Shown: positions 16,068 through 37,185 of the stretch, in pieces
Layout of the letters: each line of letters starts with the position of its first letter
Position numbering within the stretch: the first letter of the stretch is position 1
Assembly: GCA_963714955.1 (NCBI GenBank)
Contig: CAVQQJ010000007.1
Coordinates: 37,917 to 101,916 of the forward strand
Reading direction: 5' to 3'
DNA: 64,000 nt
Origin: an uncultured Bacteroidota bacterium
Lineage (GTDB): Bacteria; Bacteroidota; Ignavibacteria; Kryptoniales; JAKASW01
Notes under the pieces: model-generated
What the model was told of the DNA's origin: nothing
Databases searched by the model: none
What the model saw: only the letters and a program-made list of their open reading frames with translations
Translations under genes and position numbers: made by a program

Positions 16068-16070
16068 AGC

Positions 16071-16108
16071 AGGACAGGTGATTAGTAGTAATAGCCTGTC
16101 CTGTTTTT
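16071..16108 (+). terminator. Rho-independent terminator after tRNA-Asn
   Basis: AGGACAGG, a 16-nt loop, CCTGTCCT, then GTTTTT. Confidence 0.7.
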
Positions 16109-16109
16109 A

Positions 16110-16560
16110 TTTCTTCAAATCCCGCCTGAAAGTTCCATGGAAGATCGACTACCTCGTTCAATTTCGTGGTTCGATATTTTTTCTCTTCGTAAACCAATCT
16201 CTGCGGAAATATTGAACCAAGAATCTTTCCCTTCAACTCTGGTATAGCATTGTCAAAAGCTGCGTCCAGGTTTGCGACAATAGAAACGCCGAATTCTTGA
16301 TACTCCATGAAATTGTCCCCCGCCTTAATAAGGTCTTCTTTTTTGAGTGAGAGTTCCGTTTTTCTTTGCGAAAGACTGTCTTTGAGTCTTTTGTATGAGC
16401 CTTCTTCCATTTTCTTCTGAACGTAGTAGGTATTGTCGATTTCAAAAAGGGCTTTCTCTATTGAGGTCAGTTCTTCATCAATCTTTTCAAGATTCTTTTT
16501 CTTGTCTCCCTCTTTTTCTCGGAAGATGTCTTCCAGTATCTCAAGATAAAGCCTCATAAT
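16110..16560 (-). pseudogene. C-terminal remnant of a serine recombinase (coiled-coil/recombinase tail). The catalytic N-terminal domain is missing.
   Basis: RLYLEILEDIFREKEG...SIEKALFEIDNTYYVQKKMEEGSYKRLKDSL...ILGSIFPQRLVYEEKKYRTTKLNEVVDL resembles the tail of Bacteroidota-type serine recombinases. The 261-aa track ORF (15892-16677) is a chimera that reads through the terminator and the tRNA antisense strand. Confidence 0.55.
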
Positions 16561-16566
16561 TTCAGG

Positions 16567-17773: not shown

Positions 17774-18098
17774 GGGTCAGTAGGTGTTGGGTGGGGGTGA
17801 TACTTCGTCAACCCCTACCCGATTTTTCTTCGTTTTTCGTACGGAACAGGCAGTTTTTATGGAGAGTAGGGGTTGTAGGAGTGAATATGGATACATTTAA
17901 TAAAGTATTATCAGCAGGGTAGAGAGAGGGAGGAATAAGGCCACCGCTGCATTACTCGCTAGCTACTTTACAGAAGTGCCTTTCGACCCCTACCACCCCT
18001 ACTGCCCTACCCGAACCAGGTTCACGTTCAACAAAGCCAAATTCTGGATCGCGAGCTATGGTCAGCCCTTATTGGCGCCAGTGCGAGTAGGTCCCTAC
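17770..18098. repeat. Iteron-like repeat field: GTAGGGG-type motifs on the left, an AT-rich centre, CCCCTAC-type motifs on the right
   Basis: GTAGGGG or GTAGGnG at 17770, 17780, 17866 and 17875. CCCCTAC or CCCTAC at 17812, 17987, 17997, 18005 and 18093. AT-rich core 17881-17915. Confidence 0.6.
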
Positions 18099-18213
18099 TG
18101 CTACTGCTGCCCCCTAATGCATAGTCCCTCATCGATTTTCGGATCCTTCACGCGTCCAATGACGATGAAAGTTTCGGTTAGAGTTACTACAATATGGTAA
18201 CAGGAGTAACTAT

Positions 18214-18450
18214 ATGAAACGACCAGCATTAATGAAGCAGCAGCTCGACACTATGAGCTTCATCGAAAACTATTTCAAAGAACACGAGTGCGCCCCCAGC
18301 CAGGCGGAGGTCGCCAAGGAATGTAAAGTCCGCCAGGAGAACTTCGGAAAGATCCTTGCAGCATTGGAGAAGAAAAATTACATCAACTTGAAGTACGGCG
18401 AGGCAAGAGGAATTGAATTGGTGGTGTGGAGTGACGAGGGAGATAAGTAG
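18214..18450 (+). CDS. Small winged-helix DNA-binding protein resembling the LexA N-terminal domain, without a peptidase domain
   Basis: 78 aa. PSQAEVAKECKV...ILAALEKKNYINLKYGEARGIEL. Confidence 0.6.
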   Translation: MKRPALMKQQLDTMSFIENYFKEHECAPSQAEVAKECKVRQENFGKILAALEKKNYINLKYGEARGIELVVWSDEGDK

Positions 18451-18728
18451 TATTTCAATCGTGAACTAAGAAAATCGGGAATGAATACTGCGTAAGTGTA
18501 AGCAGATTCTTCTATTCGGGCTGCAGCTGTTGCGAGTGCATCGACAATACGTAAATACATGGTTGCCTTTTCTGTGGTTTCATTCTTATGTCAGAAAAGG
18601 CAATAAAAAAGCTCAGCGGGGAGTCTGAGCTTGGATACAATTACGAATTAATCTAAGATCATTTCAAAAGCAATATCTTCTTCGTATCGAGGAAATGTTT
18701 GGTAGGATTAGCCACAAGAGGATATTTT

Positions 18729-19232: not shown

Positions 19233-19310
19233 TACGCTTTATGATTCTAAAAAGAAAATAAATTCGCTACGTTCTTTGTTCAGGGAGCAAAAACGCCACT
19301 TGAGCGATTG

Positions 19311-19345
19311 GTTAGGCCGCAGTTCACAGCCGTGACTAACGAGCC
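19311..19345 (-). repeat. attC-like core pair just downstream of the VOC stop codon
   Basis: Plus strand reads GTTAGGC, 18 nt, then CTAACGAGCC. On the gene-sense strand this is GGCTCGTTAG followed by GCCTAACC. Confidence 0.45.
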
Positions 19346-19348: not shown

Positions 19349-19735
19349 TTATTGGCCTTGAGGCGGCTCCCATAGCTCGACCTTGTTTCCCTCTGGATCA
19401 ATGACCCAGGCAAACTTCCCATACTCGGATTCGTCAATCTTCTTGAGCACATTGCAGCCTTCTTCCTTCAAGGCTTTGACCAAGGCGTGGAGGTCGTCCA
19501 CTCGGTAGTTGACCATGAACGGAGCAGAGCTCGGAGCAAAGTGATTACTTTCTTCCGGATCGATTAACCAGGCGGTTGTGCCTGTGACCGGCTTACCCTC
19601 AGCGTCGGTCCAATCGAAGGAAGCTCCGCCCCAGACTTGGACATCGATTCCCAAGTGCCGCTTGTACCAAGCCTGCAATGATGGAGCGTCTTTGGCCTTG
19701 AAGAAGATGCCGCCGATGCCAGTGACTCGTTTCAT
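19349..19735 (-). CDS. VOC-family (glyoxalase/bleomycin-resistance fold) protein
   Basis: 128 aa. GIGGIFFKAKD...FMVNYRVDDL...KFAWVIDPEGNKVELWEP. Confidence 0.85.
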   Translation of the reverse strand: MKRVTGIGGIFFKAKDAPSLQAWYKRHLGIDVQVWGGASFDWTDAEGKPVTGTTAWLIDPEESNHFAPSSAPFMVNYRVDDLHALVKALKEEGCNVLKKIDESEYGKFAWVIDPEGNKVELWEPPQGQ

Positions 19736-21695: not shown

Positions 21696-21834
21696 GTTAC
21701 AACAGCGCGCATGAACACCGCCGCGAATGACGACGAATGTAGTTGGGTGAGTGGGGAGCATGCGAATTTCTTTTCTCTTGTTGAAGATCCCGCTGCTATT
21801 AACGGGGACTATTTCCTTTTTAAAGTGTTAGGGC
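21696..21834 (-). repeat. attC-like intergenic repeat (long copy)
   Basis: Plus strand begins GTTACAAC...GCCGCGAATG and ends GGGGACTATTTCCTTTTTAAAGTGTTAGGGC. It lies between the GNAT stop and the start of the next gene. Confidence 0.5.
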
Positions 21835-21851: not shown

Positions 21852-22376
21852 CTAGATTTCCAGCGCCATTACAAGGTCGTTATACTCGTGATGTCCTACT
21901 TTGAATTTTCTTTCGCCAACTATCTTGTAACCCAATTTTTGATAGAACGCAATTGCGCTTGTATTTCGAGAATGCACGCCCAGGAGCAATCGTCGGGAAT
22001 TGTGATGCTTCGCGTGATCCAGTGCTTCCTGCATTAATCGTTTTCCAATTCCAGTCCCTTGAAATGGAGATAATAGGTAAATGCGCTTGATTTCGAGATC
22101 GTCGGCTTGTGGGTCGGCAATCGGCAGGTTTGGAGGAGCAACTACTAAATACCCGATTGGTGCATTACCGGGTTGGATTTCTGCGAGCCAGAGGCCAAAA
22201 GTGCTTTGTTTGAGCCAGCTAAGATACACAGAAGTAGAATGTTGATTCGCGCAATGTGCAAGAATATCATTTCCGTCAAGCATCCCAGCAAAGGATTCGA
22301 GAAAAGTGGCTTGCCCGAGGAGCGAGAGGGTGGTTTCATCACCGATTGCACACTGTCGAATCGAAATCTTTTCCAA
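21852..22376 (-). CDS. GNAT-family N-acetyltransferase
   Basis: 174 aa. Acetyl-CoA motif FQGTGIGKRLM. AFYQKLGY. Confidence 0.88.
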   Translation of the reverse strand: MEKISIRQCAIGDETTLSLLGQATFLESFAGMLDGNDILAHCANQHSTSVYLSWLKQSTFGLWLAEIQPGNAPIGYLVVAPPNLPIADPQADDLEIKRIYLLSPFQGTGIGKRLMQEALDHAKHHNSRRLLLGVHSRNTSAIAFYQKLGYKIVGERKFKVGHHEYNDLVMALEI

Positions 22377-22402: not shown

Positions 22403-22472
22403 GCCTTACAAACCTCCGCCCGCTGCGGCGACGTGCGGAGAATGATGGGTAATCCGCAACGTAGACTTTTTA
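22403..22472 (-). repeat. attC-like intergenic repeat
   Basis: GCCTTACAAACCTCCGCCCGCTGCGGCGACGTGCGGAG...TTTTAGC. It overlaps the stop codon of the upstream T9SS gene. Confidence 0.5.
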
Positions 22473-24749
22473 TTTTAGCAACAACAGTTTCTTCGTGGCC
22501 ACAAAATTCCCCGCTTCGATCCTGTAGAAATATACCCCGCTCGCTTGCCTCGACCCATCGAAGGTGACCTGATACAAGCCCGGTTGTTTCTGTTCGTTCA
22601 CCAATGTCTTCACTTCTCTTCCAAGCACGTCGTAAACCTTCAATGTGACGAAACCGTTTACCGGCAACTGATAGCTGATGAGAGATGAAGGATTAAACGG
22701 ATTTGGATAGTTCTGTTCAAGAGCAAAATGAATCGGAATCTCTTCTGGGTTATCCTTAACGCCGGCGACCATGTCAGATATGGCGCGGCGCCACACTCCG
22801 CATGCAGAGCTTCCCCCCGCAAAACCCCCGCTTGTAGAGCTACCGCTGGTAGAGCTTCCGGTTGCAGAACCGACAAAGACAAATGTTCCTTTGGGGTCGA
22901 CGGCAACAGAAGAGATCAAGAGATTAGCCAATCCTTCATTGGCCGCTTTCCAGCTGGAACCGTTGTTCGTGGATAGATACACGCCGCCAAGTCCAATGCC
23001 AGCAAAGATAGTCGATCCATCTGGAGTGACGGCGAGAGAATTGACCCACGGAGTTGGTAATCCATTGTTTATTGCCTTCCAACTTGTACCGTTGTTCGTG
23101 GAGAGAAAGACTCCGCCGCCATTAGTGCCAGCGAAGAGTCTCGTCCCATCGGGGCTGATCGCAAGAGAATAAACATAATCATTCGTTAATCCAGAGTCGA
23201 CAACTGTCCAACTTGTACCGTTGTTCGTGGAGAGAAAAACTCCGCCTCCATTAGTGCCAGCGAAAAGTCTTGTCCCATCGGGGCTGATCGCAAGAGAGTA
23301 GACGGAGTCGTTTGTTAGTCCAGAGTCGACCGCCGTCCAGTTTGAACCGTTGTCGGTGGAAAGAAAGACGCCGTTGTGGGTAGTGCCGGCAAATATGTTC
23401 TTCCCGTTGGGACTCATTGCAAGAATTCTGGCCTGATCATTTGTTAACCCATTGCTGACTGATACCCAGCTTGAACCGTTGTCCGTGGATTGATACACGC
23501 CGCTATAGTAGGTACCAGCAAAGATGTTTGACCCATTCGGGCTAATCACAAGAGACCCGATGCCATTTTCCCCCATTCCGTTGTTGATCGCCGTCCAGCT
23601 TGAACCATTGTCGGTAGAAAGAAAAGCTCCGTAAGAGTCACTGCCCGCAAGGATATTCGTATCGCCGGGAGTGAATGCAAAAGATAAAATAAAGACGTTC
23701 GTTATTCCGTTATTCTCAGCTGTCCAACTTGAGCCGCCGTTCGTAGAAAGAAAGACTCCATCGGAATGAGTGCCGACGAAAATGTTCATCCCGTTGGGGC
23801 TCAGCGCGATGGTCCACACGCCCCCCAATTCAGAGCCTATTGTCCGCCAGCTCGAACCGTTATCGGTTGAAAGGAAAACGTCATCACCACCACCCCAACA
23901 ACCGGCGTAGATATTCGCACCATCTTGGCTAATTGCAAAAGAAGAGATGTTGGTGTTCGTTAATCCGCTGTCGACGGCTGTCCAGCTAGAACCATCGTTA
24001 GTAGAGCGAAAAAGTCCTGCGCCCCACGGGCCTGTTGAGATAATCGGCCCGCTGTTAGGGCTGACTGCGGCAAAGATGCTCCCATTCTTTGTGCTTATTG
24101 CAAGAGAATAGACGTTCATGTTTGTTAATCCGCTGTTAACCGCCATCCAGGTTGAACCATTGTCCGTCGAAAGAAAAATTCCGCCACCTAAAGTGCCTGC
24201 GAATATCTTCGATCCATCAGGACTGACAACAAGAGACCAAATATTAGTGTTGGTTAGTCCACTGTCTACTGCCGTCCAGCTTGAACCGTCATTCGTTGAC
24301 AGAAAAACTCCGCTACCAGTTCCCGCGAAGATTTTCGTCCCATCAGGATTTATTGCAAGGGAGTTGACGCCAGTGTTAGGTAAACCATTGCTGACCGCTA
24401 CCCAGCCTGAACCGTTGTCTGTTGAAAGAAAGACTCCACTGATCCAGCTTTGACAGCCTGCAAAGATATTTTTTCCATCAGGGCTAATTGCAAAAGAAGA
24501 AATGCCTGCGTTTGTTAATCCAGAGTATGTCCAGCTTGAACCGTTGTCAATGGAATGAAACACTCCGCCGCCCCATGTTCCTGCAAAGATATTAGTTCCG
24601 TCCGGGGTGATTGCAAGGGCATGAACGCTACCACCATACGGTCCATTACTTTGCACCCATTGAGCGATCGATGAATGTGCATCGGTGAATATTACAAACA
24701 CCACTAATATGAATCGGAAGATGTTTTTCATTTCCTTATCCTTTTGCAA
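22470..24749 (-). CDS. Secreted Asp-box/BNR-repeat beta-propeller protein with a T9SS C-terminal sorting domain
   Basis: 759 aa. Signal peptide. At least 12 tandem units of about 43-47 aa (GGVFLSTDNGSSWTAV-SGLTN). C-terminal domain NYPNPFNP...VYDVLGREV...SGVYFYRIEAGNFVATKKLLLLK. Confidence 0.85.
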   Translation of the reverse strand: MQKDKEMKNIFRFILVVFVIFTDAHSSIAQWVQSNGPYGGSVHALAITPDGTNIFAGTWGGGVFHSIDNGSSWTYSGLTNAGISSFAISPDGKNIFAGCQSWISGVFLSTDNGSGWVAVSNGLPNTGVNSLAINPDGTKIFAGTGSGVFLSTNDGSSWTAVDSGLTNTNIWSLVVSPDGSKIFAGTLGGGIFLSTDNGSTWMAVNSGLTNMNVYSLAISTKNGSIFAAVSPNSGPIISTGPWGAGLFRSTNDGSSWTAVDSGLTNTNISSFAISQDGANIYAGCWGGGDDVFLSTDNGSSWRTIGSELGGVWTIALSPNGMNIFVGTHSDGVFLSTNGGSSWTAENNGITNVFILSFAFTPGDTNILAGSDSYGAFLSTDNGSSWTAINNGMGENGIGSLVISPNGSNIFAGTYYSGVYQSTDNGSSWVSVSNGLTNDQARILAMSPNGKNIFAGTTHNGVFLSTDNGSNWTAVDSGLTNDSVYSLAISPDGTRLFAGTNGGGVFLSTNNGTSWTVVDSGLTNDYVYSLAISPDGTRLFAGTNGGGVFLSTNNGTSWKAINNGLPTPWVNSLAVTPDGSTIFAGIGLGGVYLSTNNGSSWKAANEGLANLLISSVAVDPKGTFVFVGSATGSSTSGSSTSGGFAGGSSACGVWRRAISDMVAGVKDNPEEIPIHFALEQNYPNPFNPSSLISYQLPVNGFVTLKVYDVLGREVKTLVNEQKQPGLYQVTFDGSRQASGVYFYRIEAGNFVATKKLLLLK
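23079..23336 (-). repeat. Near-identical 129-bp (43-aa) tandem duplication inside the T9SS gene
   Basis: 23079-23207 and 23208-23336 differ at only a few positions. They encode DSGLTNDSVYSLAISPDGTRLFAGTNGGGVFLSTNNGTSWTVV and DSGLTNDYVYSLAISPDGTRLFAGTNGGGVFLSTNNGTSWKAI. Confidence 0.9.
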
Positions 24750-24805: not shown

Positions 24806-24886
24806 TTCTAACGAACCCTCGCCGCTGCGGCGACGCGCGTCAGTTGTTCTTTAGCGGGGACTATTTCCTTTTTAGAATGGTTTGCC
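24806..24886 (-). repeat. attC-like intergenic repeat (complete three-block copy)
   Basis: TTCTAACGAACCCTCGCCGCTGCGGCGACGCGCG...TTTAGCGGGGACTATTTCCTTTTTAGAATGGTTTGCC. Confidence 0.55.
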
Positions 24887-24938: not shown

Positions 24939-25718
24939 TTAGCCTTTTGTTTGTGCTGCTATTCGGTTCTTCCTGTGCTTTTTCCTGTTCCAGATAAATT
25001 TTATCGAAACTGCTCTTCGATAACAACTTTCGATGCACTTACCGCAAAGAAGACACTCTGAGTTCGTTACGAGCCCGTCATTCTTGGCGACATATTGTGT
25101 TATGGGGATCTTCACCAAGCAGTCCCTGTCGCATTTGCCACAAAAGTTGCATTTATCCGTATCAACCACTGGTATCAATCTTGAATACGTTGTTCCTGCT
25201 GCGCAGAGACTGCCCATCATACATAGATTTCGACACATCCATCGCCTCTCCAAAAACAAACCAAAGAGAATAGCTCCGCTGCAATCGTAGAGCCAGACTT
25301 GTTTGTAATGGTTGTCGAAATTCATGTCGAAGAACCCAAGATCAAACTGTAGATGTGTTATCCTCCCTGATTTCAGATTGAAGAACAAAAATGCGAAAGC
25401 AGTGATAAAGAAGGCATTTACCACCACAATCCGATTCATTTTCAGCCACCATCCTGGCTTGCGCCACGGAATTTTAAACAGAGACTGCTGGCCCGAGAAA
25501 TCCTGAAGCGTACCAAAGAAACAGAGCCAACCACATCCGACTCTCCCAATGAGGGGTGTGAGCACTATCAGACTTCCCCAGAGAACAACAACCGATGTAA
25601 CCACTCCCCAGTAAATCGAATGCCAAATGAAAGCAAAGTTTAACGCTCTAAAAAATATGGGTGTCAGAATTAAAAAGACTGTTCTGGCTAGCAAATTATA
25701 AGTGAACAACTTCTTCAT
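24939..25718 (-). CDS. Membrane-bound 4Fe-4S ferredoxin-type protein (NapH/MauN-like)
   Basis: 259 aa. TM helices, CGWLCFFG, and two CxxCxxCxxxC motifs (CNFCGKCDRDC, CLLCGKCIESC). Confidence 0.8.
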   Translation of the reverse strand: MKKLFTYNLLARTVFLILTPIFFRALNFAFIWHSIYWGVVTSVVVLWGSLIVLTPLIGRVGCGWLCFFGTLQDFSGQQSLFKIPWRKPGWWLKMNRIVVVNAFFITAFAFLFFNLKSGRITHLQFDLGFFDMNFDNHYKQVWLYDCSGAILFGLFLERRWMCRNLCMMGSLCAAGTTYSRLIPVVDTDKCNFCGKCDRDCLVKIPITQYVAKNDGLVTNSECLLCGKCIESCYRRAVSIKFIWNRKKHRKNRIAAQTKG

Positions 25719-25756: not shown

Positions 25757-25840
25757 CGCCAACGACGGCGAACGGACCGTCGCTCCTGTCAAGAGCAGCT
25801 GGACAGGTAAGCTGCGGCGACGTGCAACACTGCTTGACTA
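25757..25840 (-). repeat. attC-like intergenic repeat (divergent copy)
   Basis: CCAACGACGGCGAACGGACC...GCTGCGGCGACGTGC...GACTATTTC. It abuts the stop codon of the T9SS gene. Confidence 0.4.
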
Positions 25841-27397
25841 TTTCAATAACAACAATTTCTTCGTCTCGGCGAATGTGCCAGCCTGTAATCGATAGAAGTA
25901 AACACCGCTTGCAATATTTGCCGCATTCCACTGTCGAGCGTAACTTCCCCCCTGCATTTCTCCGGAGACAAGCGTTGAAACTTCTCTCCCCAACAAATCG
26001 AAGACTTTCAACGATACAAATGACCGGGATGGAAGAGCAAACGAGATTGTTGTCGTCGGATTAAATGGGTTTGGATAGTTCTGTGAAAGGGCAAACTCTT
26101 TGGGAATTCCGCTGGGCTCATTGACGGCGTCGATTTCATCGCCAGTCGCGAAAATCTCAACGGATGAATAATTGCTTGTCCCGGCAGTATTCGCGGCACT
26201 CACATGCCAGAAGTATATTGTCCCAGCCGCAAATGGATTGGATGATTTCGCAACCGTATCTACCAACGTCGTGTCGAAAACAATGTTTCCATTAACGAAT
26301 CCACCAATTGAATCAAGCGCGTTATTAGATGCAACTTGAAGATGATATGTTGTCGCACCTGGTGACGGATTCCACTTGAAAGTTGTCCTCCTGGGCACCT
26401 CAGTCGTCCCAAGCGGTGACGCAAGCAGCGGTGTCGGTGGTCGTTCCATTGGTGTATGCACAATGACTCCATCGTGCCCGACAGCCCAGCCTTCTGAATC
26501 ATTAATGAAGTAAATATCTTCGAAGTAGATTCCGGGATGCGCATTAACGACCTGGCTTGTCCATGTGTCCCCACGGTTGGTCGATTTCAAAATAGCGTCG
26601 TTAGGTCCGCCGGCAACATACGCGACGGAGTCCCCCTGAAGAAAAAGCTTGAAGAATACGGCATCCGGGGTTGATTCTATGATCTTCCAATGTGTCCCGC
26701 CGTCAATTGATTTCATTATTAATCCGTTACTTCCGACGCAGAGACCGACCAGGGAATCGAAAAACATGATGTCGGCAAGCCCGGCATGCGTGTAGCTTGA
26801 ATCCTGATTCCACGAAAGGCCCCCGTTCATTGTCGAGAGGATCAGGCCGGAATCGCCGGTAGCCCAACCGAGGCTTGCATTGAGAAAGAAGATACGAACC
26901 AATCTCCCTGAAAATCCGATATACTGTGGATACCAATTCTCGCTCTTCTGGCTCGACGCATCAATGACGGAGAGAGCTGTGTAGCTGCGCCCGCCAGCCA
27001 TCCAGCATAGCGTCTGCTTATTAGATACCATGCCAAAAATTCCATAATAATCCGCCATGTACGGTGAATTATCAATGTTTTGTTGCCAGGATACGCCGCC
27101 ATCTGTTGTTGACAAGATGACATTGTAATCTCCGACGATCCAGCCGTTGAGGCTGTCCAAAAAGAAGACCTTGTTGAGGTTTGATGAATACTGGTTCGAC
27201 ACCTCGTTCCATGAAGCACCGCCGTCAGTGGTGCTAAGGAAAGCCCCATTTTGTCCGACTATCCAGCCATTCATTAGCGAGGTGAATCGAACTCCAAAAA
27301 GATTTGAAGTCACGTTGGATGCTTGTTGTGTCCATTGGGCTGATACATTTGAAATCACACAAGTAAAAAACGCAAGAAGCAATAGAATCTTTCTCAT
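25838..27397 (-). CDS. Secreted Ycf48/BNR-like beta-propeller protein with a T9SS C-terminal sorting domain
   Basis: 519 aa. Signal peptide. TTDGG-SW repeats. C-terminal domain NYPNPFNPTTTISF...SGVYFYRLQAGTFAETKKLLLLK. Confidence 0.85.
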   Translation of the reverse strand: MRKILLLLAFFTCVISNVSAQWTQQASNVTSNLFGVRFTSLMNGWIVGQNGAFLSTTDGGASWNEVSNQYSSNLNKVFFLDSLNGWIVGDYNVILSTTDGGVSWQQNIDNSPYMADYYGIFGMVSNKQTLCWMAGGRSYTALSVIDASSQKSENWYPQYIGFSGRLVRIFFLNASLGWATGDSGLILSTMNGGLSWNQDSSYTHAGLADIMFFDSLVGLCVGSNGLIMKSIDGGTHWKIIESTPDAVFFKLFLQGDSVAYVAGGPNDAILKSTNRGDTWTSQVVNAHPGIYFEDIYFINDSEGWAVGHDGVIVHTPMERPPTPLLASPLGTTEVPRRTTFKWNPSPGATTYHLQVASNNALDSIGGFVNGNIVFDTTLVDTVAKSSNPFAAGTIYFWHVSAANTAGTSNYSSVEIFATGDEIDAVNEPSGIPKEFALSQNYPNPFNPTTTISFALPSRSFVSLKVFDLLGREVSTLVSGEMQGGSYARQWNAANIASGVYFYRLQAGTFAETKKLLLLK

Positions 27398-27482
27398 GGT
27401 ATTCTCCTTTTCACTTGGTCATGGTTGTTGTCAAATTGCGACGGCAACCAACCTGCGTAATCATGTATGCTTTATTCACACC

Positions 27483-27564
27483 GCCTAACGAACCCTCGCA
27501 CGCTGCGGCGACATGCTTCCACCTGTTTTTTAGCGCGGACTCTTTCCTTTCAAAATGGTTAGGC
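27483..27564 (-). repeat. attC-like intergenic repeat, the best-formed copy (82 bp, GCCTAAC ... GTTAGGC)
   Basis: GCCTAACGAACCCTCGCACGCTGCGGCGACATGC...TTTAGCGCGGACTCTTTCCTTTCAAAATGGTTAGGC. The terminal 10 bp are complementary (ACCGCCTAAC / GTTAGGCGGT). The stop codon of ORF 27559-27903 lies inside the GCCTAA core. Confidence 0.6.
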
Positions 27565-27903
27565 GGTTGCTCCGTGACACACTTTCTTTTCTTCAAGGAT
27601 GTGTCGTACGGTTTCAGTATTCTCCGTGGTAAATCCTATCTTGACTTTTTTGCCTACAAGTGACATCAAAAATATTTCGTCTCTTTTCGGCCTCAGAATG
27701 TCAAGGGGATACCAAGTTGTCAGATCTCTTGTACCCCAAATTCTCCATTTTCCTGTAGACGGTGACGTATGCTCGACAGCGACTGAATTGATCTTATCAA
27801 AAGGGACTCGCTTTGAAGTTCCAGGAAAATAGTAATTTTTGAAGACAATAGAATCCGACGTGATCACAATGAGCCTGTCTTTATAGATGACATTTTCGTG
27901 CAT
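27559..27903 (-). CDS. Hypothetical protein (114 aa), candidate cassette ORF
   Basis: Compact ORF flanked by the perfect 13-bp inverted repeat GTTAGGCGGTTGC (27558-27570) / GCAACCGCCTAAC (27935-27947). Confidence 0.6.
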   Translation of the reverse strand: MHENVIYKDRLIVITSDSIVFKNYYFPGTSKRVPFDKINSVAVEHTSPSTGKWRIWGTRDLTTWYPLDILRPKRDEIFLMSLVGKKVKIGFTTENTETVRHILEEKKVCHGATA

Positions 27904-27934
27904 GGTGAGTGTCTCCTTTTGAATGTAGAGTGTT

Positions 27935-27990
27935 GCAACCGCCTAACAACCTCCGCATGTTGCGGCGAAGAATGAACACGTTTTGCACAA
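27935..27990 (-). repeat. attC-like intergenic repeat (core plus GC hairpin block)
   Basis: GCAACCGCCTAACAACCTCCGCATGTTGCGGCGAAGAATG. Confidence 0.5.
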
Positions 27991-28032
27991 ATACAGGATT
28001 ATTTATTGGAAACGGCACCAGGCAGCTGACAA

Positions 28033-29007
28033 TCATTCGCTCAGTGGCCGCCTCCAAATACCTTTGCCGGTAAAAACAGAATTTGTGCCGGTTCCGGCGA
28101 AGAGAGTAGAACCGGAGACAGCAAATGCAGTAACTACGGTGTTTGCGGGCAATCCCGAATTAATGGCAGTCCAGCTCGTGCCGTTGTTCGTTGAAAGAAG
28201 AACGCCGCCGCCCAGAGTTCCGACAAAGAGATCATCCCCAGAGACCGCAAAAGAAGTGACAAATACATCGGTTAATCCTGAATCAACTGCACTCCAGGTT
28301 GTGCCACTGTTTGTTGAAAGAAAAACCCCGCCCCCCAAAGTTCCAGCGAAAAGGTTGCTCCCGGCGACTGCAAAAGATGTGACAAATGCATTGGTCAATC
28401 CTGAATCAGTTGCATTCCAACTTGTCCCATTATTGGTGGAAAGAAAAATACCGTAGCCGGCAGTTCCGGCAAAGACTTTCATACCGGAAACGGCAAATGC
28501 ATCAACATAATTGCCCGTTAACATTGAATTTATGATACTCCAGCTTGTGCCGTTGTTACTTGAAAGGTAAACACCATAATAAGCTGCCCCAACAATTATA
28601 TTTGACCCTGACATGGTGAGTGCTTGATCGTTGGTGGCTGTCATGCCGGTATTGATTGAAGTCCAGCTTGCACCGCTGTTCGTGGAAAGGAAGACCCCGT
28701 GGCCATAGGTCCCTGCAAAGATATTCGTATCAGAGACAACAACAGACAAAACGGTAATATTCGTCAAACCAGCATTGTTCCAGCGTGTGCCGTTGTCGGT
28801 GGAGAGGAAAATTCCGCCGTCAGTACCTGCAAAGATATTCGAACCTGAAACAGCAAGAGCATTCACTCCAGTGCTCGTCAAACCGTCATTAACTTGAGTC
28901 CAGACTGTGGATGAGTTTGCCGCAACGGGATTTTCAGTTTTATGGCTGCAACCAATGCAGGAAATAACAGATAAAAATAATGCGACTATGAATATCAGTT
29001 CTTTCAT
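28033..29007 (-). CDS. Asp-box/BNR-repeat lipoprotein, a paralogue of the T9SS proteins that lacks the sorting domain
   Basis: 324 aa. Lipobox VISCIGC. Repeats GIFLSTNNGTSW. It ends at GIWRRPLSE, the point where the paralogues continue into the C-terminal sorting domain. Confidence 0.8.
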   Translation of the reverse strand: MKELIFIVALFLSVISCIGCSHKTENPVAANSSTVWTQVNDGLTSTGVNALAVSGSNIFAGTDGGIFLSTDNGTRWNNAGLTNITVLSVVVSDTNIFAGTYGHGVFLSTNSGASWTSINTGMTATNDQALTMSGSNIIVGAAYYGVYLSSNNGTSWSIINSMLTGNYVDAFAVSGMKVFAGTAGYGIFLSTNNGTSWNATDSGLTNAFVTSFAVAGSNLFAGTLGGGVFLSTNSGTTWSAVDSGLTDVFVTSFAVSGDDLFVGTLGGGVLLSTNNGTSWTAINSGLPANTVVTAFAVSGSTLFAGTGTNSVFTGKGIWRRPLSE

Positions 29008-30486: not shown

Positions 30487-32577
30487 TTACTTGATTACCA
30501 TTAATTTCTTCGTTTCAACAAAACTTCCAGCACTAAGCCTGTAGAAATAAACACCGCTCGACAAGTTGCTCGCATTGAAAGTCACCGAGTGTGTGCCCGC
30601 AGTCTGACGGTCATCGACTAATGTTCTCACAAGCCGTCCCAGTGCATCATAGACTTTTAAGGTGACGAGGGTGCTCACCGGTAATTGATAACTGATCACG
30701 GCCGAGGGGTTGAAGGGGTTTGGGAAATTCTGATCAAGCTCGAACCTCATCAGAAGACCGACCTCTTTGGTTTTGACAGAGGTCGCCATCTCGGACAATG
30801 GCCGTTTCCAGACTCCTCCGTCCCGTGTTCCGGCAAACAGGCTACTGTCGTTGAGAGCAATGGCCGTTACACGAAGATCTGCAAGACCGGAATTAACGGG
30901 AACCCAACTGATTCCGTCATCGGCTGAATGAAAGACCCCGCCGCCAATTGTGCCTGCAAAGATATCGTTGCTGTTTACGGCAAGCGTCTGAACATAAAAG
31001 GATGATAATCCAGAATCAGCTCTCATCCAGCTTGAGCCTCTATTGATTGAGCGGTATATATCCTCGTACGTGGCGGCGAAAAGCGTGTTGCTGTTGGCTC
31101 CGAGCGCATTGACCTCGGGATAATCAGTCAGCCCGGAGTTGAAGGCTGTCCAACTGGAGCCGTTGTTCGTAGAAAGAAAGACACCGCCTGTATATGTCGC
31201 TGCAAAGAGATCGCTGTCGACGACGGCGAGAGCCAGAACAACCGTCTCAGTCAAACCTAAGTTAACTGCCGACCAGCTGCTGCCGTTATTTGTGGACAGA
31301 AAAACGCCGCCGGCTGTGCCTGCGAAAAGATTATTGCCGATTAAAGCAAGCGCATAAACATCCGGATTCGTCAATCCAGAATCTACTGAACTCCAGTTCC
31401 TGCCGTTGTTGGTTGAAAGAAAAATGCCGCCGCCAAACTCGCCCGCAAAGAGATTGTTGCCGCTGACCAAGAGAGTCTGAACAGAATAAATGTTGTCTGT
31501 TAAGCCGGTATCAGCAGCGTTCCAATTCTCGCCGCTATTTGAAGAATAGAATACTCCGGCGTCCTGTGTGCTCGCAAAAAGGTTGCTCCCCATAACTGCA
31601 AGCGCTGAAATATTTGTGAAAGCCAAACCGAAATTAACAGACGTCCAAAGCGCCCCGCTGTTTGTGGAAAGAAATACGCCGTCACCGAGAGTGCCGGCGA
31701 ACAGATCGGTGTCTCTAAGAACGAGAGCATTTACATGTCTCGAGCCGAGGCCAGAATCTATTGCCGACCAGCTGATCCCGTTGTTTGTTGATAGAAAAAT
31801 GCCTCCACCGGTGCCCGCAAACAGATCGCTTCCGTTAACGGCAAAACTGGTAACGCCGTAGTCGGCCAAACCGGAGTCAACGGCTGACCAACTGGTTCCG
31901 TTGTTGGTGGATCGAAAAATACCGTTGCCGAGAGTCCCCATATACAGATTGGTATCGCTGACAGTCAATGCTCGGACGTTAGCGTACGTTAAGCCTGAAT
32001 TGACGGGCGTCCAACTATCGCCATTGTTGGTTGAGAGAAAAACGCCGTCGCCGCCTGTGCCCGCAAATAAGTTGCTGCCGTTGACCGCAAAAGCATGAAC
32101 ATCGGTATTGATCGTGAATCCGGAATTTACGAGAGTCCAATTTGTACCGTTATCGCTCGAACGGAAAACACCGCTGTAGGTTCCGGCAAAAAGATATCCG
32201 CCGCTGACAGCAAAAGCCTGAACATTAGGATTAGTCAATCCGGTTGTTGCAGGTGTCCAGTTCTCACCATTGTTTGTAGAAAGAAAGATGCCGCCAATGT
32301 ATGTTGCCGCAAAGAGGTTTTCCCCCTTGACGGCCAGCGCATTAATGATAGGGTTTGTTAAGCCAGAATTGGCGGATGTCCAGCTTGCGCCATTATCCGT
32401 CGAACGATAGACTCCATTCGTTAGCGTTCCAGCAAAGAGATAGCTGCCGTTCATTGCGATGCATTGGATCATACCATCTCCTGAGGGCCCAGTTGTTTGG
32501 ATCCACTGCGCGTGCGTTTTGGATAATGGCACTATAGCAACGGTCAGAAGGAGAAGAACCTTGATCTTAAGTCTCAT
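30487..32577 (-). CDS. Secreted Asp-box/BNR-repeat beta-propeller protein with a T9SS C-terminal sorting domain
   Basis: 696 aa. Signal peptide. About 13 units (GGIFLSTNNGxxW). C-terminal domain NFPNPFNPSAVISYQL...SGVYFYRLSAGSFVETKKLMVIK. Confidence 0.85.
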   Translation of the reverse strand: MRLKIKVLLLLTVAIVPLSKTHAQWIQTTGPSGDGMIQCIAMNGSYLFAGTLTNGVYRSTDNGASWTSANSGLTNPIINALAVKGENLFAATYIGGIFLSTNNGENWTPATTGLTNPNVQAFAVSGGYLFAGTYSGVFRSSDNGTNWTLVNSGFTINTDVHAFAVNGSNLFAGTGGDGVFLSTNNGDSWTPVNSGLTYANVRALTVSDTNLYMGTLGNGIFRSTNNGTSWSAVDSGLADYGVTSFAVNGSDLFAGTGGGIFLSTNNGISWSAIDSGLGSRHVNALVLRDTDLFAGTLGDGVFLSTNSGALWTSVNFGLAFTNISALAVMGSNLFASTQDAGVFYSSNSGENWNAADTGLTDNIYSVQTLLVSGNNLFAGEFGGGIFLSTNNGRNWSSVDSGLTNPDVYALALIGNNLFAGTAGGVFLSTNNGSSWSAVNLGLTETVVLALAVVDSDLFAATYTGGVFLSTNNGSSWTAFNSGLTDYPEVNALGANSNTLFAATYEDIYRSINRGSSWMRADSGLSSFYVQTLAVNSNDIFAGTIGGGVFHSADDGISWVPVNSGLADLRVTAIALNDSSLFAGTRDGGVWKRPLSEMATSVKTKEVGLLMRFELDQNFPNPFNPSAVISYQLPVSTLVTLKVYDALGRLVRTLVDDRQTAGTHSVTFNASNLSSGVYFYRLSAGSFVETKKLMVIK

Positions 32578-32644
32578 AGTATTTCCGCAAACAAGATTGA
32601 AAGAAGTGTTACGAAAATTCTCAAAAACCGTGCAACCAGCTCGA

Positions 32645-34804
32645 TTATTTCAGCAGCAAAAGTTTTTTCGTCTCGCTGTATGTTCCCGCTTGTAAGCGAT
32701 AAAAATATACCCCGCTTGCCATAGTCGCCGCATTCCATTGCTGGGTGTAGCTTCCCGGCTCCAGTTCTCCGGAAACAATAGTCGATACCTCTCTTCCCAA
32801 TATGTCAAATACTTTTAACGATACGATCGACCGGACTGGAATAGCGAATGAGATGATTGTCGACGGGTTAAACGGGTTTGGATAGTTCTGCATTAATAAA
32901 AATGCTTTTGGAATAGTGATCGAGTGTTCATTGACGGACGTCGTTGACTCTGTCGTCTTGAATACACCTCCACCATACGTGGCTGCATATGCGTAACCAT
33001 CGCGGTCAAAAACGATCGACCGTACATCTGAATATGTTAGTCCTTGATTTAGTGAAACCCAAGTGATTCCACTATCTGGTGAAAAGAATATTCCATCTTT
33101 TGATCCTATGAAGATCTTCTTGGTCGAATTGACAGATATGGATTGGATTGATTTGGCCAAGAGACCCGTGTTCGATGCAAACCAGTTAGCTCCCGAATCG
33201 GTTGAACAATATATTCCACTGTTATCTGTGCCCGCAAACAACTTATTCTCCGAACAAGAGATAGAAATTACCGCATCATTTGGTAGGCCTTTACTGCAAG
33301 CCGACCAACTCTTACCATTATTTTGCGAACAATAAACTCCAGACCCTGTAGCTGCATATTGATTACCAGATGCTCCGAAGCCTAATGCAAATACTTTCGA
33401 AGTAAGTCCGCTGTTAGCTAATTGCCAACTCGAGCCGCCGTCCGACGATTTGAATAAGCCGCTCTGTGTGGAGGTGAACATGGTACCTGTAGAGTCCATT
33501 GCCATTGCTATCACATTCGAATCAGCTAGACCCGTATTTGATCGATACCATTGGTCACCGTTGTCGGCAGAACGATATATACCTGCAGCACCCATGGTTC
33601 CCGCAAATTCAACGTTCGCCCTATTAACTACAACGGCGGTCACGTTCATTACACCAATGCCATTGTTAATAGACACCCAGTCTTGCCCTTGATCGGTTGA
33701 ACGATAAATACCTCCCTCTGCAGTACCTGCAAACAAATCACCGTTGAGATTTGTCGCTATAGACTGAACATCACTTCTCGATAGGCCTTCATTGCTCACG
33801 TTCCAATTGTCTCCTTTGTTAGTAGATTTGAATACTCCCGAACCCCCCGTGCCAACATATATGTTGTCATTGGAGTCTGCAGCGATGCACTCAATCCACC
33901 ATTCAGTAAGACCATTATTAACTTCTGTCCAAGTAGAGCCATTGTCCGTTGAACGCTCTATCCCAGCCACTTCTGCATAGCTTCCCGCGAACATGTTACC
34001 ATCCTCAGTCATCAGAAAGCAGCTGAAATCGCCTCCACCTCCAACCGGACTCGACGGGGTGGTCATAGTCATCAATTTCCAGTGATCTCCGTCGTCTGAT
34101 GAGCGGTAGACCGAAAAATTTACAATAGAGAAGAGATCGCCATTTCTGGCAACATAGATCGGGCCTCCGTAAAGCATCTGCGCGCCAACTGATGGCGTTT
34201 GAATTCCGTTACTTGTACTGCTCCAAGTTTGTCCGTCGGTCGTAGATCTGAATATCGCATTCCGCTGCGTCATGACGAAAACATCCCCGTCGGGCTTCGA
34301 AGCAAGAGAGATAATTCCAAAGAGTGCGGGAATGCTGTCACTTGTGATCCATGTCATTCCCCTATCGGTGGATCGGTAACATAATGGATAATAAAGGTCC
34401 CCAACCACTACAGTTCCTTTTGCAGTTATGGTTACACATGACATTGGATTGCTGAACAGGAGTTTCCAGTTGATACCATCATCCGAGGAAGAATACAATC
34501 CCGTGGGAGAACAAAGGTAAACATATCCCGAATCGTCACATGCGACAGAATTCAGTGCCGATGTGGCATCTAGCCCAGTATGTAAAGCCGTCCATGTTAA
34601 CCCCTCATCGGTAGAACGAAATAATCCCACACCTCTTGAGATTGCAAACAAATGTCCGTTTATGCTTGCAGTGATTGCTGTTATATCGCCTCCTGATGGC
34701 CCTATTAGACCGCTTGTCTTCTGCCATTGGGCGTTAAGTACCCGAAAAATGAAAATGTCGAGCGACAATACAACAATTAATCCAAAAACGCTTCTTACAT
34801 TCAT
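32645..34804 (-). CDS. Secreted sortilin/BNR-like beta-propeller protein with a T9SS C-terminal sorting domain
   Basis: 719 aa. Signal peptide. Repeats (RSTDxGxxW). C-terminal domain NYPNPFNPSTIISF...SGVYFYRLQAGTYSETKKLLLLK. Confidence 0.85.
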   Translation of the reverse strand: MNVRSVFGLIVVLSLDIFIFRVLNAQWQKTSGLIGPSGGDITAITASINGHLFAISRGVGLFRSTDEGLTWTALHTGLDATSALNSVACDDSGYVYLCSPTGLYSSSDDGINWKLLFSNPMSCVTITAKGTVVVGDLYYPLCYRSTDRGMTWITSDSIPALFGIISLASKPDGDVFVMTQRNAIFRSTTDGQTWSSTSNGIQTPSVGAQMLYGGPIYVARNGDLFSIVNFSVYRSSDDGDHWKLMTMTTPSSPVGGGGDFSCFLMTEDGNMFAGSYAEVAGIERSTDNGSTWTEVNNGLTEWWIECIAADSNDNIYVGTGGSGVFKSTNKGDNWNVSNEGLSRSDVQSIATNLNGDLFAGTAEGGIYRSTDQGQDWVSINNGIGVMNVTAVVVNRANVEFAGTMGAAGIYRSADNGDQWYRSNTGLADSNVIAMAMDSTGTMFTSTQSGLFKSSDGGSSWQLANSGLTSKVFALGFGASGNQYAATGSGVYCSQNNGKSWSACSKGLPNDAVISISCSENKLFAGTDNSGIYCSTDSGANWFASNTGLLAKSIQSISVNSTKKIFIGSKDGIFFSPDSGITWVSLNQGLTYSDVRSIVFDRDGYAYAATYGGGVFKTTESTTSVNEHSITIPKAFLLMQNYPNPFNPSTIISFAIPVRSIVSLKVFDILGREVSTIVSGELEPGSYTQQWNAATMASGVYFYRLQAGTYSETKKLLLLK

Positions 34805-34873
34805 GACTATGTCCTTATTTCGAATGGTCTAAAACAATAGTAGGTACTTTCTATAATTACGAAATGCGTCGCG

Positions 34874-34918
34874 ACCTAACGAACCGGAGCCAGCAGCGGC
34901 ACTTGATTCATCGACAGT
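34874..34918 (-). repeat. attC-like intergenic repeat (short copy)
   Basis: ACCTAACGAACCGGAGCCAGCAGCGGCACTTG. Confidence 0.45.
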
Positions 34919-34920
34919 TA

Positions 34921-37118
34921 TTACTTCAACAACATCAACTTCTTGGTCTGGACAAAATTTCCGGCCGTCAGCCTGTAGAAATATACTCCGCTCGCCAAGC
35001 TCGAACCATCGAACGTCACACGATACGATCCCGGCTGTTTCTGGTTATTGACAAGTGTGGCGATCTCTCTGCCGAGAATGTCATAGACTTTCAATGTCAC
35101 CATCCCTGCCTTCGTAAGATCGTAAGAGATTGTTGTGGACGGATTGAACGGGTTCGGGTAGTTCTGACCGAGTTCCGATCGTTCGGGTACCGTCGGCCGC
35201 CTGAACGATGAAGAAACCTCCGTGAGGCTGCTTCTGTAAAACCTGGCGCCGGAAGTCGCAAGAATCTCCATCTCATCGAGCAAAATGCAGCGCACCGGAT
35301 AGGGAAGCGTTGCTATGAGAGTCCATTGTTCGCCCCCGTCGGTAGATCGGTAGATAGAGCCCCTCGTAGATCCTGCAAAGAGAATCCCTTTATTGTTGAC
35401 CGTTGCCGAGATCAGAGATGTGTCGGTGATGCCGGATTTTGTTTGAGTCCATGTGAGGCCGGTATCGTTCGACCGGTACACACCGCGTGAGCCGAACGAG
35501 AAAATGAGTGTGTCGCTGATCTTCGCGACGGCGGCGACGTTCTGATCGACTCGTCCACGGTTAGTCCACGAAATGTCGTCCACGGTTGCTTGGGAGATTC
35601 TGCCGTCCAGTGTGAAGCCCAACATACCACTTAGGATTTGTGGATAAATTCTATGCGGCGCCGTGTGACAGAACGCTATGTAATTCCCATCCGTAATCCA
35701 CGTGGGAATCCATTCGGGGAACGTCGCATAGATGGGATTCCAAAAAATACCCTCATCCGCCCCGACCAAGAGATCTCTCCAGACATTGAACTGCGTTGAG
35801 TCTGTCGTGAATGGCTGGATGTGGTAGTAAACCTCAAGACAATTGAACCGCCGACCGGACGACATCCCTAACTGATCCGGGATCTTCGTCCATGAAACAC
35901 CGCTTTGAGAAGTATAAGCGCCGTTCTCTGCCGTGGCGGCATAGTAAGACCCCATCGTATCTTGAATGATCTGAGTGATAAGAGGAAGCGTCAGCGAAGT
36001 CTGGGTCCATGTTCTTCCTTTGTCTACAGATCGGAAGATCCCCGCGCTGTCTGTTCCGACAAGCAAAGCGCCGTTCTTGTCGATCAACCCGCAGGAAATA
36101 TCATATCCACCGGGCAGGGAGTTCGTGAAATTCGAAGTGTCAAGAGGAGTAACCATGCCGCTGTTCAGAACTGTCCATGATAGCCCCCTGTTTGTGGTTT
36201 CGTAGACTCCGCCCCATGCCCCGGCATAGACAGTATCTTTTCGGAGAGCTACAATGGTCCTGATACCATAGCCATTGTGGGCAATCCCGGCCGGTCCGAT
36301 GGAAGCCGTATCTCCCGACGCGCTGATGCTGGATAGTCCGCCGATACTCCCCGTAAATATTGTCCCCGCAGAATCGACCGCCATGACATCGATCGGATTC
36401 ATGAGCTTGGCGAGAAACGTCCAATTCGCGCCCCCGTTTGTCGAGCGGAATATTTCGTATGCGTAAGCGCCAAGACCTTCGTAGACGCCGGCATACATTG
36501 TTCCGTCCGAGCTCACCGTCAACGCAAGGACCAAATGGAATCATGCCCTCCCCAATTGCATTCCTCCCAATCGGCGCCGGCATTTGTCGATCGGAGCATA
36601 TGATCCTTCGAAGCCGCAACCATCGTAGCGCTGTCCACCATCGCAAGCTCTAACACATCTGTTCCGGGAAACGGATTGGATCCATAAGTTGACCAGTTCT
36701 TACCGTCGTCGATTGATCGATAGATCCCGCCCCCGAAGGCAGGTGCGTACAGCGATCCATCCCTCAACGCAATGATCGAAGAGGGAGTAAACGTAAGGCT
36801 CACACTATCGAGCAAGGTTCCGTTGGCGGAAAGGCGAAAGAGATACCTACCGTAGGACTGACCAAATGCGAAAGTGAGGATGGTCCCGGGCCGGGAGATG
36901 GCCATTGTCGTAACGCCGTACTTCATAGGAGTCTGGCGCCATGTTGCACCCCTATCGGTCGAAGTATAGATTCCGCTGCCATTTGCTGAAGTGCCGGCAT
37001 ACATGATCCCGCTGGAATCAATTGCCAGCGACGTTACCCAATCCTGAAAATTAGGAACCGTTTGAGAATAGACGTTCGCGACGCAGGCCGCGCAGATAAT
37101 GAACATGACTCTTTTCAT
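34921..37118 (-). pseudogene. BNR-like beta-propeller T9SS protein split by a frameshift near 36525-36535
   Basis: ORF 36519-37139 carries the signal peptide (MKRVMFIICAACVANVYSQ, ATG at 37118) and the first blades. It stops at ...HDSIWSLR. The next frame continues LVLALTVSSDGTMYAG through to a T9SS C-terminal domain (NYPNPFNPSTTISYDL...SGVYFYRLTAGNFVQTKKLMLLK). Confidence 0.75.
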
Positions 37119-37161: not shown

Positions 37162-37185
37162 GCCTAACGAATTGCGGCAGGCCTG
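37162..37185 (-). repeat. attC-like core (minimal copy) upstream of the first array gene
   Basis: GCCTAACGAATTGCGGCAGGCC. Confidence 0.4.

Follow-up and report, generated by a model that had tools for sequence, protein, structure and literature searches.

A probable integron-type gene cassette with a decayed attC-derived site in an integrase-less array of an uncultured Bacteroidota-like bacterium

Introduction

The gene cassettes of integrons, both those of classes 1-3 and those of sedentary chromosomal integrons, are built to a common plan: they begin with TTRRRY, carry a promoterless open reading frame (ORF) whose stop codon lies within RYYYAAC, and end in a 3′ element, the attC site, whose last bases are GTTRRRY. 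An attC site is commonly some 57-141 nt long, and may reach about 200 nt; the integron integrase IntI requires its L″/L′ stem, presented on the folded bottom strand. Here we describe a 0.46-kb unit of this plan, containing a gene for a 114-aa protein, in the chromosome of an uncultured bacterium of the Fibrobacteres-Chlorobi-Bacteroidetes group (Bacteroidota/Ignavibacteria-like). It lies on the minus strand of a 64-kb stretch of contig CAVQQJ010000007.1, referred to below as the window. We propose, with a probability of roughly 0.7, that the unit is an integron-type cassette by descent, standing in a degraded array, and that its attC-derived site has decayed so that it is most likely immobile.

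The closest described counterparts of such a locus are clusters of attC sites that have no integron integrase (CALINs), defined as at least two attC sites clustered less than 4 kb apart with no intI (Cury et al. 2016, PMC4889954). They are common and are regarded as integrons that have been degraded or split; insertion sequence (IS) elements have been linked with their formation (PMC4889954). Reports of integrons already exist for the Bacteroidetes/Chlorobi group, the Ignavibacteriae among them (PMC9024848).

The present locus shares with integron cassettes not only the plan given above but also the co-oriented array, the occurrence of one type of site on unrelated genes, and an ORF family found in different arrays, among them one with a bona fide IntI. 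It differs from a complete integron in that the window contains no IntI, and its focal element differs from an integron attC in lacking the L″/L′ stem, the short symmetric unpaired central spacer and the geometry of extrahelical bases, in carrying an A-rich stretch of about 18 nt on its 5′ side only, and in being scored by a generic model on its R boxes alone. As in CALINs, co-oriented cassettes and attC-derived repeats are found with neither intI nor a recognisable pseudogene nearby, glyoxalase and GNAT genes are among the cargo, and a transposase and a possible remnant of a tRNA-linked island are close at hand; unlike in CALINs, several spacers here separate very large genes (500-760 aa) for secreted BNR proteins with type IX secretion system (T9SS) tails, and not small cassettes.

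Results and discussion

A bounded unit around a promoterless gene

Between its two predicted crossover points (T27946 to G27489) the unit comprises 458 bp of the minus strand. Its parts, in the order of reading, are as follows.

27941-27969, minus strand: 3′ module of an upstream attC remnant, TTCGCCGCAACATGCGGAGGTT-GTTAGGC, with its R′ core at 27947-27941, read directly.
27947/27946, minus strand: predicted crossover G27947|T27946, the left cassette boundary.
27935-27947, no strand assigned: inverted-repeat arm at the 5′ end of the cassette; its partner, 27558-27570, is the 3′ end of the ORF.
27904-27946, minus strand: 5′ leader of the cassette, 43 nt, TTAGGCGGTTGCAACACTCTACATTCAAAAGGAGACACTCACC, with a ribosome-binding site (GGAG) and no promoter-like site.
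27559-27903, minus strand: cargo ORF of 114 aa, encoding a conserved small protein.
27483-27564, minus strand: attC-derived element of 82 nt, here termed 'type B short' and near-identical to one on metagenome contig L083, in the order R″ GCCTAAC (27564-27558), A-rich linker, mutated H1 hairpin, GCATGTCGCCGCAGC module, GGTTC, R′ GTTAGGC (27489-27483).
27489/27488, minus strand: predicted crossover G27489|T27488 of the 82-nt element.

The initial annotation of this DNA, made from the sequence alone, had reported the ORF, a perfect 13-bp inverted repeat around it (GTTAGGCGGTTGC at 27558-27570 against GCAACCGCCTAAC at 27935-27947), a stop codon embedded in GCCTAA, a 38-nt spacing between the upstream box and the start codon, and an 82-bp element with ten complementary terminal base pairs, and every one of these was recovered in place. 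The TAA stop (27561-27559) lies within GCCTAAC (27564-27558), and GTTAGGC (27947-27941) ends 38 nt 5′ of the ATG. Read from 27564 to 27483, the 82-nt element ends at its 3′ side in a second GTTAGGC; its termini pair over 10 bp (ACCGCCTAAC, 27567-27558, with GTTAGGCGGT, 27489-27480), and this stem is recovered by folding. The two heptamers of the element are complementary at all seven positions, as are the R″ and R′ boxes of attC, and its length falls inside the known attC range. The module at 27941-27969, just upstream of the cassette boundary, shares homology with attC sites of IntI-bearing loci, whose 3′ ends read ...GCCGCAGC...GGTCC-GTTAGGC, and no R″ partner was found upstream of it. No sigma-70-like promoter or terminator was found in 27300-28150, and expression of the ORF would therefore depend on read-through. 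In an excised circle, both 13-bp arms would abut the reconstituted attC and lengthen the R-box stem to 13 bp.

By itself the 13-bp inverted repeat is weak evidence, and it is the comparison with other loci that carries the case. Of Markov-simulated windows, 47% contain a perfect 13-mer inverted repeat within 500 nt (mean 0.87), so that about half of such windows should have one; the window itself contains three unrelated examples, and GCCTAAC occurs in it 5 times against 3.8 expected. These figures are what would be anticipated if a chance repeat happened to surround an ordinary orphan gene. Against this, three of the five GCCTAAC heptamers lie within the 465 nt of 27483-27947, both arms are kept in homologous units on other contigs, and near-identical relatives of the 82-nt element occur elsewhere, so that the chance reading is effectively refuted.

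Two other perfect inverted repeats of 13-14 bp within 500 nt, AAAAAATCCCGTC (13198-13234) and TTCCGTCCATTTGA (39214-39465), are unrelated to the array; the former is directly downstream of clpB and may be a terminator.

The cargo gene and its boundaries recur among different neighbours

Twelve homologues of the 114-aa ORF were found, with 57-94% identity and a mean column identity of 75%. Their neighbours differ in every contig, giving eight distinct contexts, and most of them lie in runs of small, co-oriented, functionally unrelated genes. Two loci are particularly informative. On L001, a 99-kb contig from a metagenome-assembled genome (MAG) labelled Bacteroidota, an 88% homologue lies about 5 kb from a recombinase that scores 379.7 bits on the NCBIfam model TIGR02249 'integron integrase' (cutoff 265). 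On L005, a 94% homologue is flanked on both sides by 152-nt GCCTAAC...GTTAGGC elements that read GCCTAAC-CAGTC-GCT(C)AAGCTG ... CAGCTTAGC-TCCGGTCC-GTTAGGC. The initial annotation had put forward, as a check, the presence of the same ORF-plus-repeat unit elsewhere; the ORF with its boundary motifs is found in other contigs, among different neighbours, and one of these contigs has an integron integrase above a curated threshold.

The 5′ limit of homology agrees with the predicted crossover point. On the upstream side of the ATG, the window, L005, L008 and L010 become homologous at G|TTAGG(C)GGTTGC, and the sequences further 5′ are unrelated; the stop codon falls within GCCTAAC in the window, L005 and L010. 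The final codons of the ORF, GCA ACC GCC TAA, hold the GCAACCGCCTAA(C) arm in most homologues. Since the GTTAGG(C)GGTTGC leader and the GCAACCGCCTAA ORF end recur in homologous units on other contigs, with the 13-bp arms conserved in the L005 unit and partly so in those of L008 and L010, the inverted repeat is a conserved property of the unit. The 3′ boundary of homology is less clean than the 5′ boundary, because the interiors of the attC elements differ between homologues. The integron-cassette layout originally suggested is borne out by the G|TTAGGC boundary and by the recurrence of ORF and boundary motifs among different neighbours.

The C-terminal residues of the ORF family (…GATA*) are encoded by the GCAACCGCCTAA arm, so that the end of the protein consists of the nucleotides of the R″ arm; in L006 and L003, where R″ is mutated, the ORF is 2-3 codons longer. 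No match to the protein was found in Pfam, NCBIfam or PADLOC. Its AlphaFold model, of moderate confidence (predicted local distance difference test score, pLDDT, 66.8), has seven strands and a C-terminal helix, and the top PDB matches to this model are all pleckstrin homology (PH) domains, some of them bacterial, though weak (E 0.06-0.5, template-modelling score about 0.5). A PH-domain-like fold is tentatively suggested by the model.

A modular attC family in IntI-bearing relatives

When the IntI of L001 was used as query, eight loci were retrieved from uncultured 'Bacteroidetes' MAGs, with integrases 74-100% identical. The repeats at these loci, here called type A, are modular and 106-250 nt long. 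Their 5′ portion reads GCCTAAC-CAGTCGCT, followed by a CCCCGC...GCGGGG hairpin and ...AAGCTGACGG...CCGTCGACGA..., and their 3′ portion CTGCA(C/T)GTCGCCGC... and CAGCTTAGCTCCGGTCC-GTTAGGC. The L005 element is the simplest member and reads as a canonical attC, with R box, 5-nt spacer, L″, variable terminal structure, L′, spacer and R′. Its L″, GCT^AAGCTG, has one extra base on the ORF-sense 5′ arm, and in the longer type-A members a hairpin sits where L005 has this extra base.

In being lineage-specific and conserved, with a branched and variable terminal structure, and in the high similarity of repeats within an array, the type-A family is like the long attC families of sedentary integrons such as the Vibrio cholerae repeats. 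It is unlike them in its uncultured Bacteroidota-like host, in the hairpin at the extrahelical-base position and in its short deletion derivatives, the type-B elements considered below.

The focal 82-nt element shares with type A the R″ box, the GCATGTCGCCGC module and the ending ...GGTTC-GTTAGGC, while about 45 nt of A-rich sequence replace the middle; its 3′ half matches the conserved 3′ end of attC sites beside IntI. The copies in the window are homologous, module by module, to elements directly flanking IntI genes that pass the curated threshold (L016, L014 and L013).

A scan of metagenomes for the A-rich core returned 26 stretches, about 16 of which are real sites of the focal kind. These type-B sites have the architecture YYCTAAC-C-ATTTTAAAAAGGAAAKAG, a TCCCCGC-TAAAGAACA-GCGGGA hairpin (H1), optional modules, and GTCGCCGCAGC..GCGGAGG-TTC-GTTAGRN. 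On the approximately 16 metagenome contigs they always lie directly 3′ of a co-oriented ORF, and YCGTTAGR boxes stand 20-40 nt ahead of the next ORF. They follow 12 unrelated protein families and precede 11; recurring after so many unrelated families, type B is thus a gene-independent site. From sequence comparison, type B is judged to be homologous to type A, with an A-rich insertion after R″, and the 82-nt form to be a deletion variant. The focal copy has the best R″/R′ complementarity of all type-B sites (7/7 with 3 flanking base pairs). The L083 copy is otherwise almost identical to it but has H1 intact (TCCCCGC...GCGGGA), where the focal copy reads CCGCGC...GGTGGA.

That the repeats have nothing to do with integrons, being instead extragenic repeats like repetitive extragenic palindromes (REP) or miniature inverted-repeat transposable elements, or a conserved 3′ untranslated region or terminator, with ends that resemble R boxes by accident, is very unlikely. 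The interior of the element does fold unlike attC, no integrase lies nearby, and in the long type-B forms a terminator-like T-run (GCGGGATTTTC) follows the H1 hairpin. Yet the copies are co-oriented with the genes, in one array plus one site at 49.5 kb; stop codons fall inside R″ and homology breaks at G|TT; the relative on L005 passes an independent attC covariance model (see below); and the module-by-module homology reaches elements that flank IntI. Short GC-rich hairpin repeats in spacers after unrelated genes are also a feature of REP sequences and bacterial interspersed mosaic elements, which occur in both orientations throughout a genome and are associated with REP-associated tyrosine transposases (RAYT), but the present copies are strictly co-oriented, clustered, bounded by integron R boxes and homologous to IntI-adjacent sites.

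A REP/RAYT system was accordingly ruled out by the single orientation, the clustering and the absence of any Y1/RAYT transposase from the window. An intrinsic terminator at the focal copy was likewise ruled out, as no terminator-like site lies in the unit or its surroundings (27300-28150), and clustered regularly interspaced short palindromic repeats were ruled out by spacings of hundreds to thousands of nt with genes between them and by the non-uniformity of the repeats.

The focal element lacks the stem required by IntI

Eleven textbook attC sites harvested from class 1 arrays served for calibration. Their arm-duplex energies range from -7 to -19.5 kcal/mol, with z down to -7, whereas that of the focal element is -5.1/-5.4 kcal/mol (z +0.3 to +0.9), which is no lower than in shuffled sequence, and in all six type-B sites tested arm pairing is indistinguishable from that of shuffles. 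Folded as single-stranded DNA, the focal element forms the terminal stem and weak interior pairs (z -1.7 for the top strand, -1.25 for the bottom strand). The L″/L′ stem beside a short central spacer with extrahelical bases, which marks an attC site, is not formed by the 82-nt element, although two other marks of attC are present in it: it directly follows a co-oriented promoterless ORF within an array, and its site type occurs on unrelated genes. RNAalifold, applied to seven short type-B sites, returned the R stem and a small 3′ GC hairpin at -5.4 kcal/mol with no compensatory pairs.

Applied to a MAFFT alignment of the 11 textbook sites, RNAalifold predicted no structure, and the textbook R/L structure was therefore imposed and checked by pair counting: pairing is seen in 83% of R-box cells and in 57% of L-stem cells, with compensatory changes in four of the six L pairs. 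A covariance model built on these sites and this structure, R1, scores independent attC sites from the chromosomal integrons of Methylotenera and Methylophilus at 24-52 bits, and the type-A sites of L005 at 22.1 and 19.2 bits. With default filters, a search of the window with R1 gave nothing. With filters off, the focal element is the top match of the window, on the right strand, at 12.3 bits and E 0.99, but only its R boxes are aligned and the L stem is skipped. Within the clade's attC family, this generic model detected only the simplest members. Judged by what the initial annotation had said would refute it, 27483-27564 falls short of an attC structure: the R″/R′ pair is there, the L″/L′ stem is not. 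Rfam at gathering thresholds matched only a tRNA in the window, a scan that provided no test for attC.

The integrase-less array

The unit belongs to a co-oriented minus-strand array of about 18.5 kb (approximately 18.7-37.2 kb). The other genes of the array encode a 167-aa protein of unknown function, a glyoxalase, two more unknowns, a GNAT protein, a 4Fe-4S protein, a serpin, and several large BNR/Sortilin proteins with T9SS tails. The glyoxalase and GNAT genes are small cargo of the classic cassette kind. Most spacers hold pieces, on the minus strand only, of one repeat, GCA(C/T)GTCGCCGCAGC ... GGTTC-GTTAGRN, and three of them add a 5′ part, YCCTAAC-(C)ATTTTRAAAGGAAAKAGTCC. Altogether one full R″...R′ element and at least eight partial attC-derived remnants lie at 19.3-37.2 kb, with one more at 49.5 kb, and 27483-27564 holds the only complete R″...R′ pair of the array. 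A strict pattern for the repeated motif matched the focal copy alone, because the copies differ by indels, and iterated nhmmer end-profiles, which are underpowered for motifs of 20-30 nt, recruited one site in the window. Besides those at the unit itself, the copies include the following.

24806-24886, minus strand: second 'type B short' element, downstream of the 4Fe-4S gene (24939-25718), with degenerate R boxes GGCAAAC and GTTAGAA.
21770-21834, minus strand: type-B 5′ half, CCCTAAC...AAAGGAAATAGTCCCCG...CGGGATCTTCAACAAGAGAAAAG, downstream of the GNAT gene (21852-22376).
19299-19345, minus strand: R′-like box GGCTC-GTTAGTC, after which comes the 5′ end of a type-A attC, GCCTAACCAATCGCTCAAG; both downstream of the glyoxalase gene (19349-19735).
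22403-22432, minus strand: attC 3′ module remnant GTCGCCGCAGCGGGCGGAGGTTT-GTAAGGC, between the 759-aa BNR/T9SS gene and the GNAT gene.
25801-25825, minus strand: partial attC 3′ module GCACGTCGCCGCAGCTTACCTGTCC with no intact R′, downstream of the 519-aa BNR/T9SS gene.
34874-34900, minus strand: attC 3′ module remnant GCCGCTGCTGGCTCCGGTTC-GTTAGGT.
37162-37182, minus strand: attC 3′ module remnant GCCTGCCGCAATTC-GTTAGGC, at the upstream end of the co-oriented array.

The array is decayed: one element has both R boxes, there are many half-sites, very large genes lie between some of them, and there is no integrase. No IntI, other tyrosine recombinase, Phage_integrase match or recognisable intI pseudogene was found in the 64-kb window, and tblastn of the window with the clade's IntI gave nothing at E <= 1e-3. 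The array is therefore read as degraded and CALIN-like. As only one element has both R boxes and the others are 5′ or 3′ fragments, it might miss the two-attC threshold of IntegronFinder. GC composition does not mark it.

The flanks are of housekeeping character (FKBP, prolyl oligopeptidase, MutS, ClpB and sensor kinases), together with an rve transposase and a tRNA followed by a VapE-like gene. The rve-family (DDE) transposase gene (7641-8987, minus strand) is about 10 kb from the array, which is consistent with the links between IS elements and CALINs (PMC4889954). The tRNA (15993-16064, plus strand) and the VapE-like primase gene (16567-17640, plus strand), with about 1.1 kb containing a small helix-turn-helix-like ORF, abut the low-coordinate end of the array; the stretch 15993-18728, in which no integrase gene was seen, may be what is left of an island integrated at the tRNA. 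At least five paralogous secreted proteins of BNR/Sortilin/YCF48-like type, most with T9SS C-terminal sorting domains, are encoded at 22470-24749, 25838-27397, 28033-29007 and 30487-36534. Their genes are built from coding repeats of 123 or 129 nt, which dominate the output of repeat finders, and the presence of attC remnants between genes so large is unusual. Some 12 kb off the main array, downstream of a sensor-kinase gene, a 68-nt attC 3′ module ending GGTTC-GTTAGCC (49484-49551) directly precedes a SIR2-like gene in 48286-49551 (minus strand; PADLOC Aga_SIR2/SIR2 matches, best E 2.9e-20), which could be a solitary defence-gene cassette at a secondary site.

Descent, decay and mobility

The anatomy of the unit, the behaviour of its ORF family, its boundaries and its attC homology all agree, and for this reason we favour a cassette by descent. 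In the course of events that we envisage, a unit running from T27946 to G27489, with a promoterless leader starting at TTAGGC, a 114-aa cargo ORF with its stop in R″, and an attC-derived element ending in the R′ box GTTAGGC, would have been inserted by IntI through attC x attI or attC x attC recombination, with crossover at G|TT in R′ boxes. Its attC interior would later have become the short deletion variant without an L″/L′ stem, and further mutations would have accumulated in the hairpin that relatives keep. At present the unit would be immobile, vertically inherited and expressed only by read-through from upstream. Its immobility is judged most likely because the focal site lacks the stem required by IntI and carries extra mutations relative to L083.

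Several observations sit less easily with this proposal. R1 was home-made from 11 class 1 sites and is not the model of IntegronFinder. The window covers 64 kb of a 129-kb contig, and a gene for IntI could therefore lie in another part of the genome. In type-B sites the 35-nt A-rich 5′ part hardly varies from contig to contig, beside 12 unrelated upstream gene families, which suggests some constraint and is awkward for a mere relic. Between L005 and the window, homology breaks directly after a shared GCCTAACCA; a normal R′ crossover does not explain a break at this point, and attC exchange or gene conversion must therefore be invoked. Finally, neither an empty site, nor a circle, nor a strain polymorphism was seen among the relatives and one independent assembly. 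The expected junctions are ...GCGGAGGTTG|TTAGGCGGTGTGAAT for the empty site and ...GAGGGTTCG|TTAGGCGGTTGCAAC for the 458-bp circle. The junction was found in one independent assembly only (L075), which matches the window exactly, and an exact look-up of the ORF protein found no entry elsewhere. The relatives of the downstream neighbour (69-74% identity) are in unrelated contexts, and those loci therefore offer no empty site. Of the initial view of the unit as a discrete gene cassette, descent is upheld by anatomy, boundaries and family, whereas a unit that is mobile today is not, given that no presence/absence polymorphism was seen and the window has no integrase.

In the L005/window pair, 94%-identical ORFs are joined to two different sites, a 152-nt type-A attC in L005 and an 82-nt type-B element in the window, and this suggests attC exchange or gene conversion between array repeats. 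Contigs L071 and L072 are identical in a 522-aa relative of the window's 519-aa gene and in the 200 nt ahead of it, but not in the gene call that comes next upstream (703 against 445 aa); the difference, at the end of an array-like run, could be at strain level.

It is tempting to take the conservation of the A-rich part one step further and to suppose that the cassette is still active, type B being a functional, non-canonical attC recombined in trans by an IntI of this clade encoded elsewhere in the genome. Such a site would combine R boxes with an enlarged asymmetric spacer and an alternative pairing of (G)TCCSCGC with GCGRGGG(TTC), and a weak long-range pairing of GAGTCC.GCG with CGC.GAGGGTTC is seen in the minimum-energy fold. 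It is also true that the focal site leads the type-B sites in R″/R′ complementarity and the window in R1 matches, and cassettes of CALINs are in principle mobilisable in trans (PMC4889954). Active recombination is nevertheless unlikely: arms pair no better than shuffles, the type-B alignment shows no compensatory changes and a weak consensus structure, the hairpin kept by L083 has been lost from the focal copy, no IntI was found in the 15 type-B contigs or the window, and about 0.9 Mb of IntI-anchored loci contain no type-B motif.

In the IntI-anchored loci L011-L017 and L053, intI is co-oriented with long runs of small ORFs on both sides, with attC-like ends situated for the most part upstream of it and directed towards it; this geometry matches neither the classical divergent arrangement nor the simple 'inverted' one. 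In L016 (1663-3028) a type-A attC ends 46 nt before the intI ATG, and the intI stop codon lies inside GTCTAAC, from which a full 184-nt GTCTAAC...GTTAGGC element follows; intI is therefore laid out like a cassette there, with only partial traces of such a layout in L053 and L011. A more general proposal would take type B as a functional class of attC without the canonical L″/L′ stem, consisting of R boxes, a conserved one-sided A-rich spacer of 18 nt and local hairpins, in a clade whose intI is embedded co-oriented in the array and is cassette-like at least in L016. We regard this proposal as quite doubtful.

Significance

A cassette by descent, stranded in a degraded, integrase-less array, makes the unit itself a routine example. 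It is, however, an entry point to a long, modular attC family that is specific to a lineage of uncultured, Bacteroidota-like soil and peat bacteria and is largely missed by standard attC models. Type-B elements, in which the R boxes are kept and the hairpin is lost, offer a natural series for the study of attC decay or of the structural needs of IntI, and the finding of a 94%-identical ORF on two attC interiors is relevant to the assembly of cassettes and the exchange of attC sites. While the present unit alone does not establish these wider points, the embedded co-oriented intI, the modular attC family and the stem-less type B are the parts worth following up. Were type B to prove a functional attC, attC recognition and integron architecture would follow wider rules than those built into current models and IntegronFinder.

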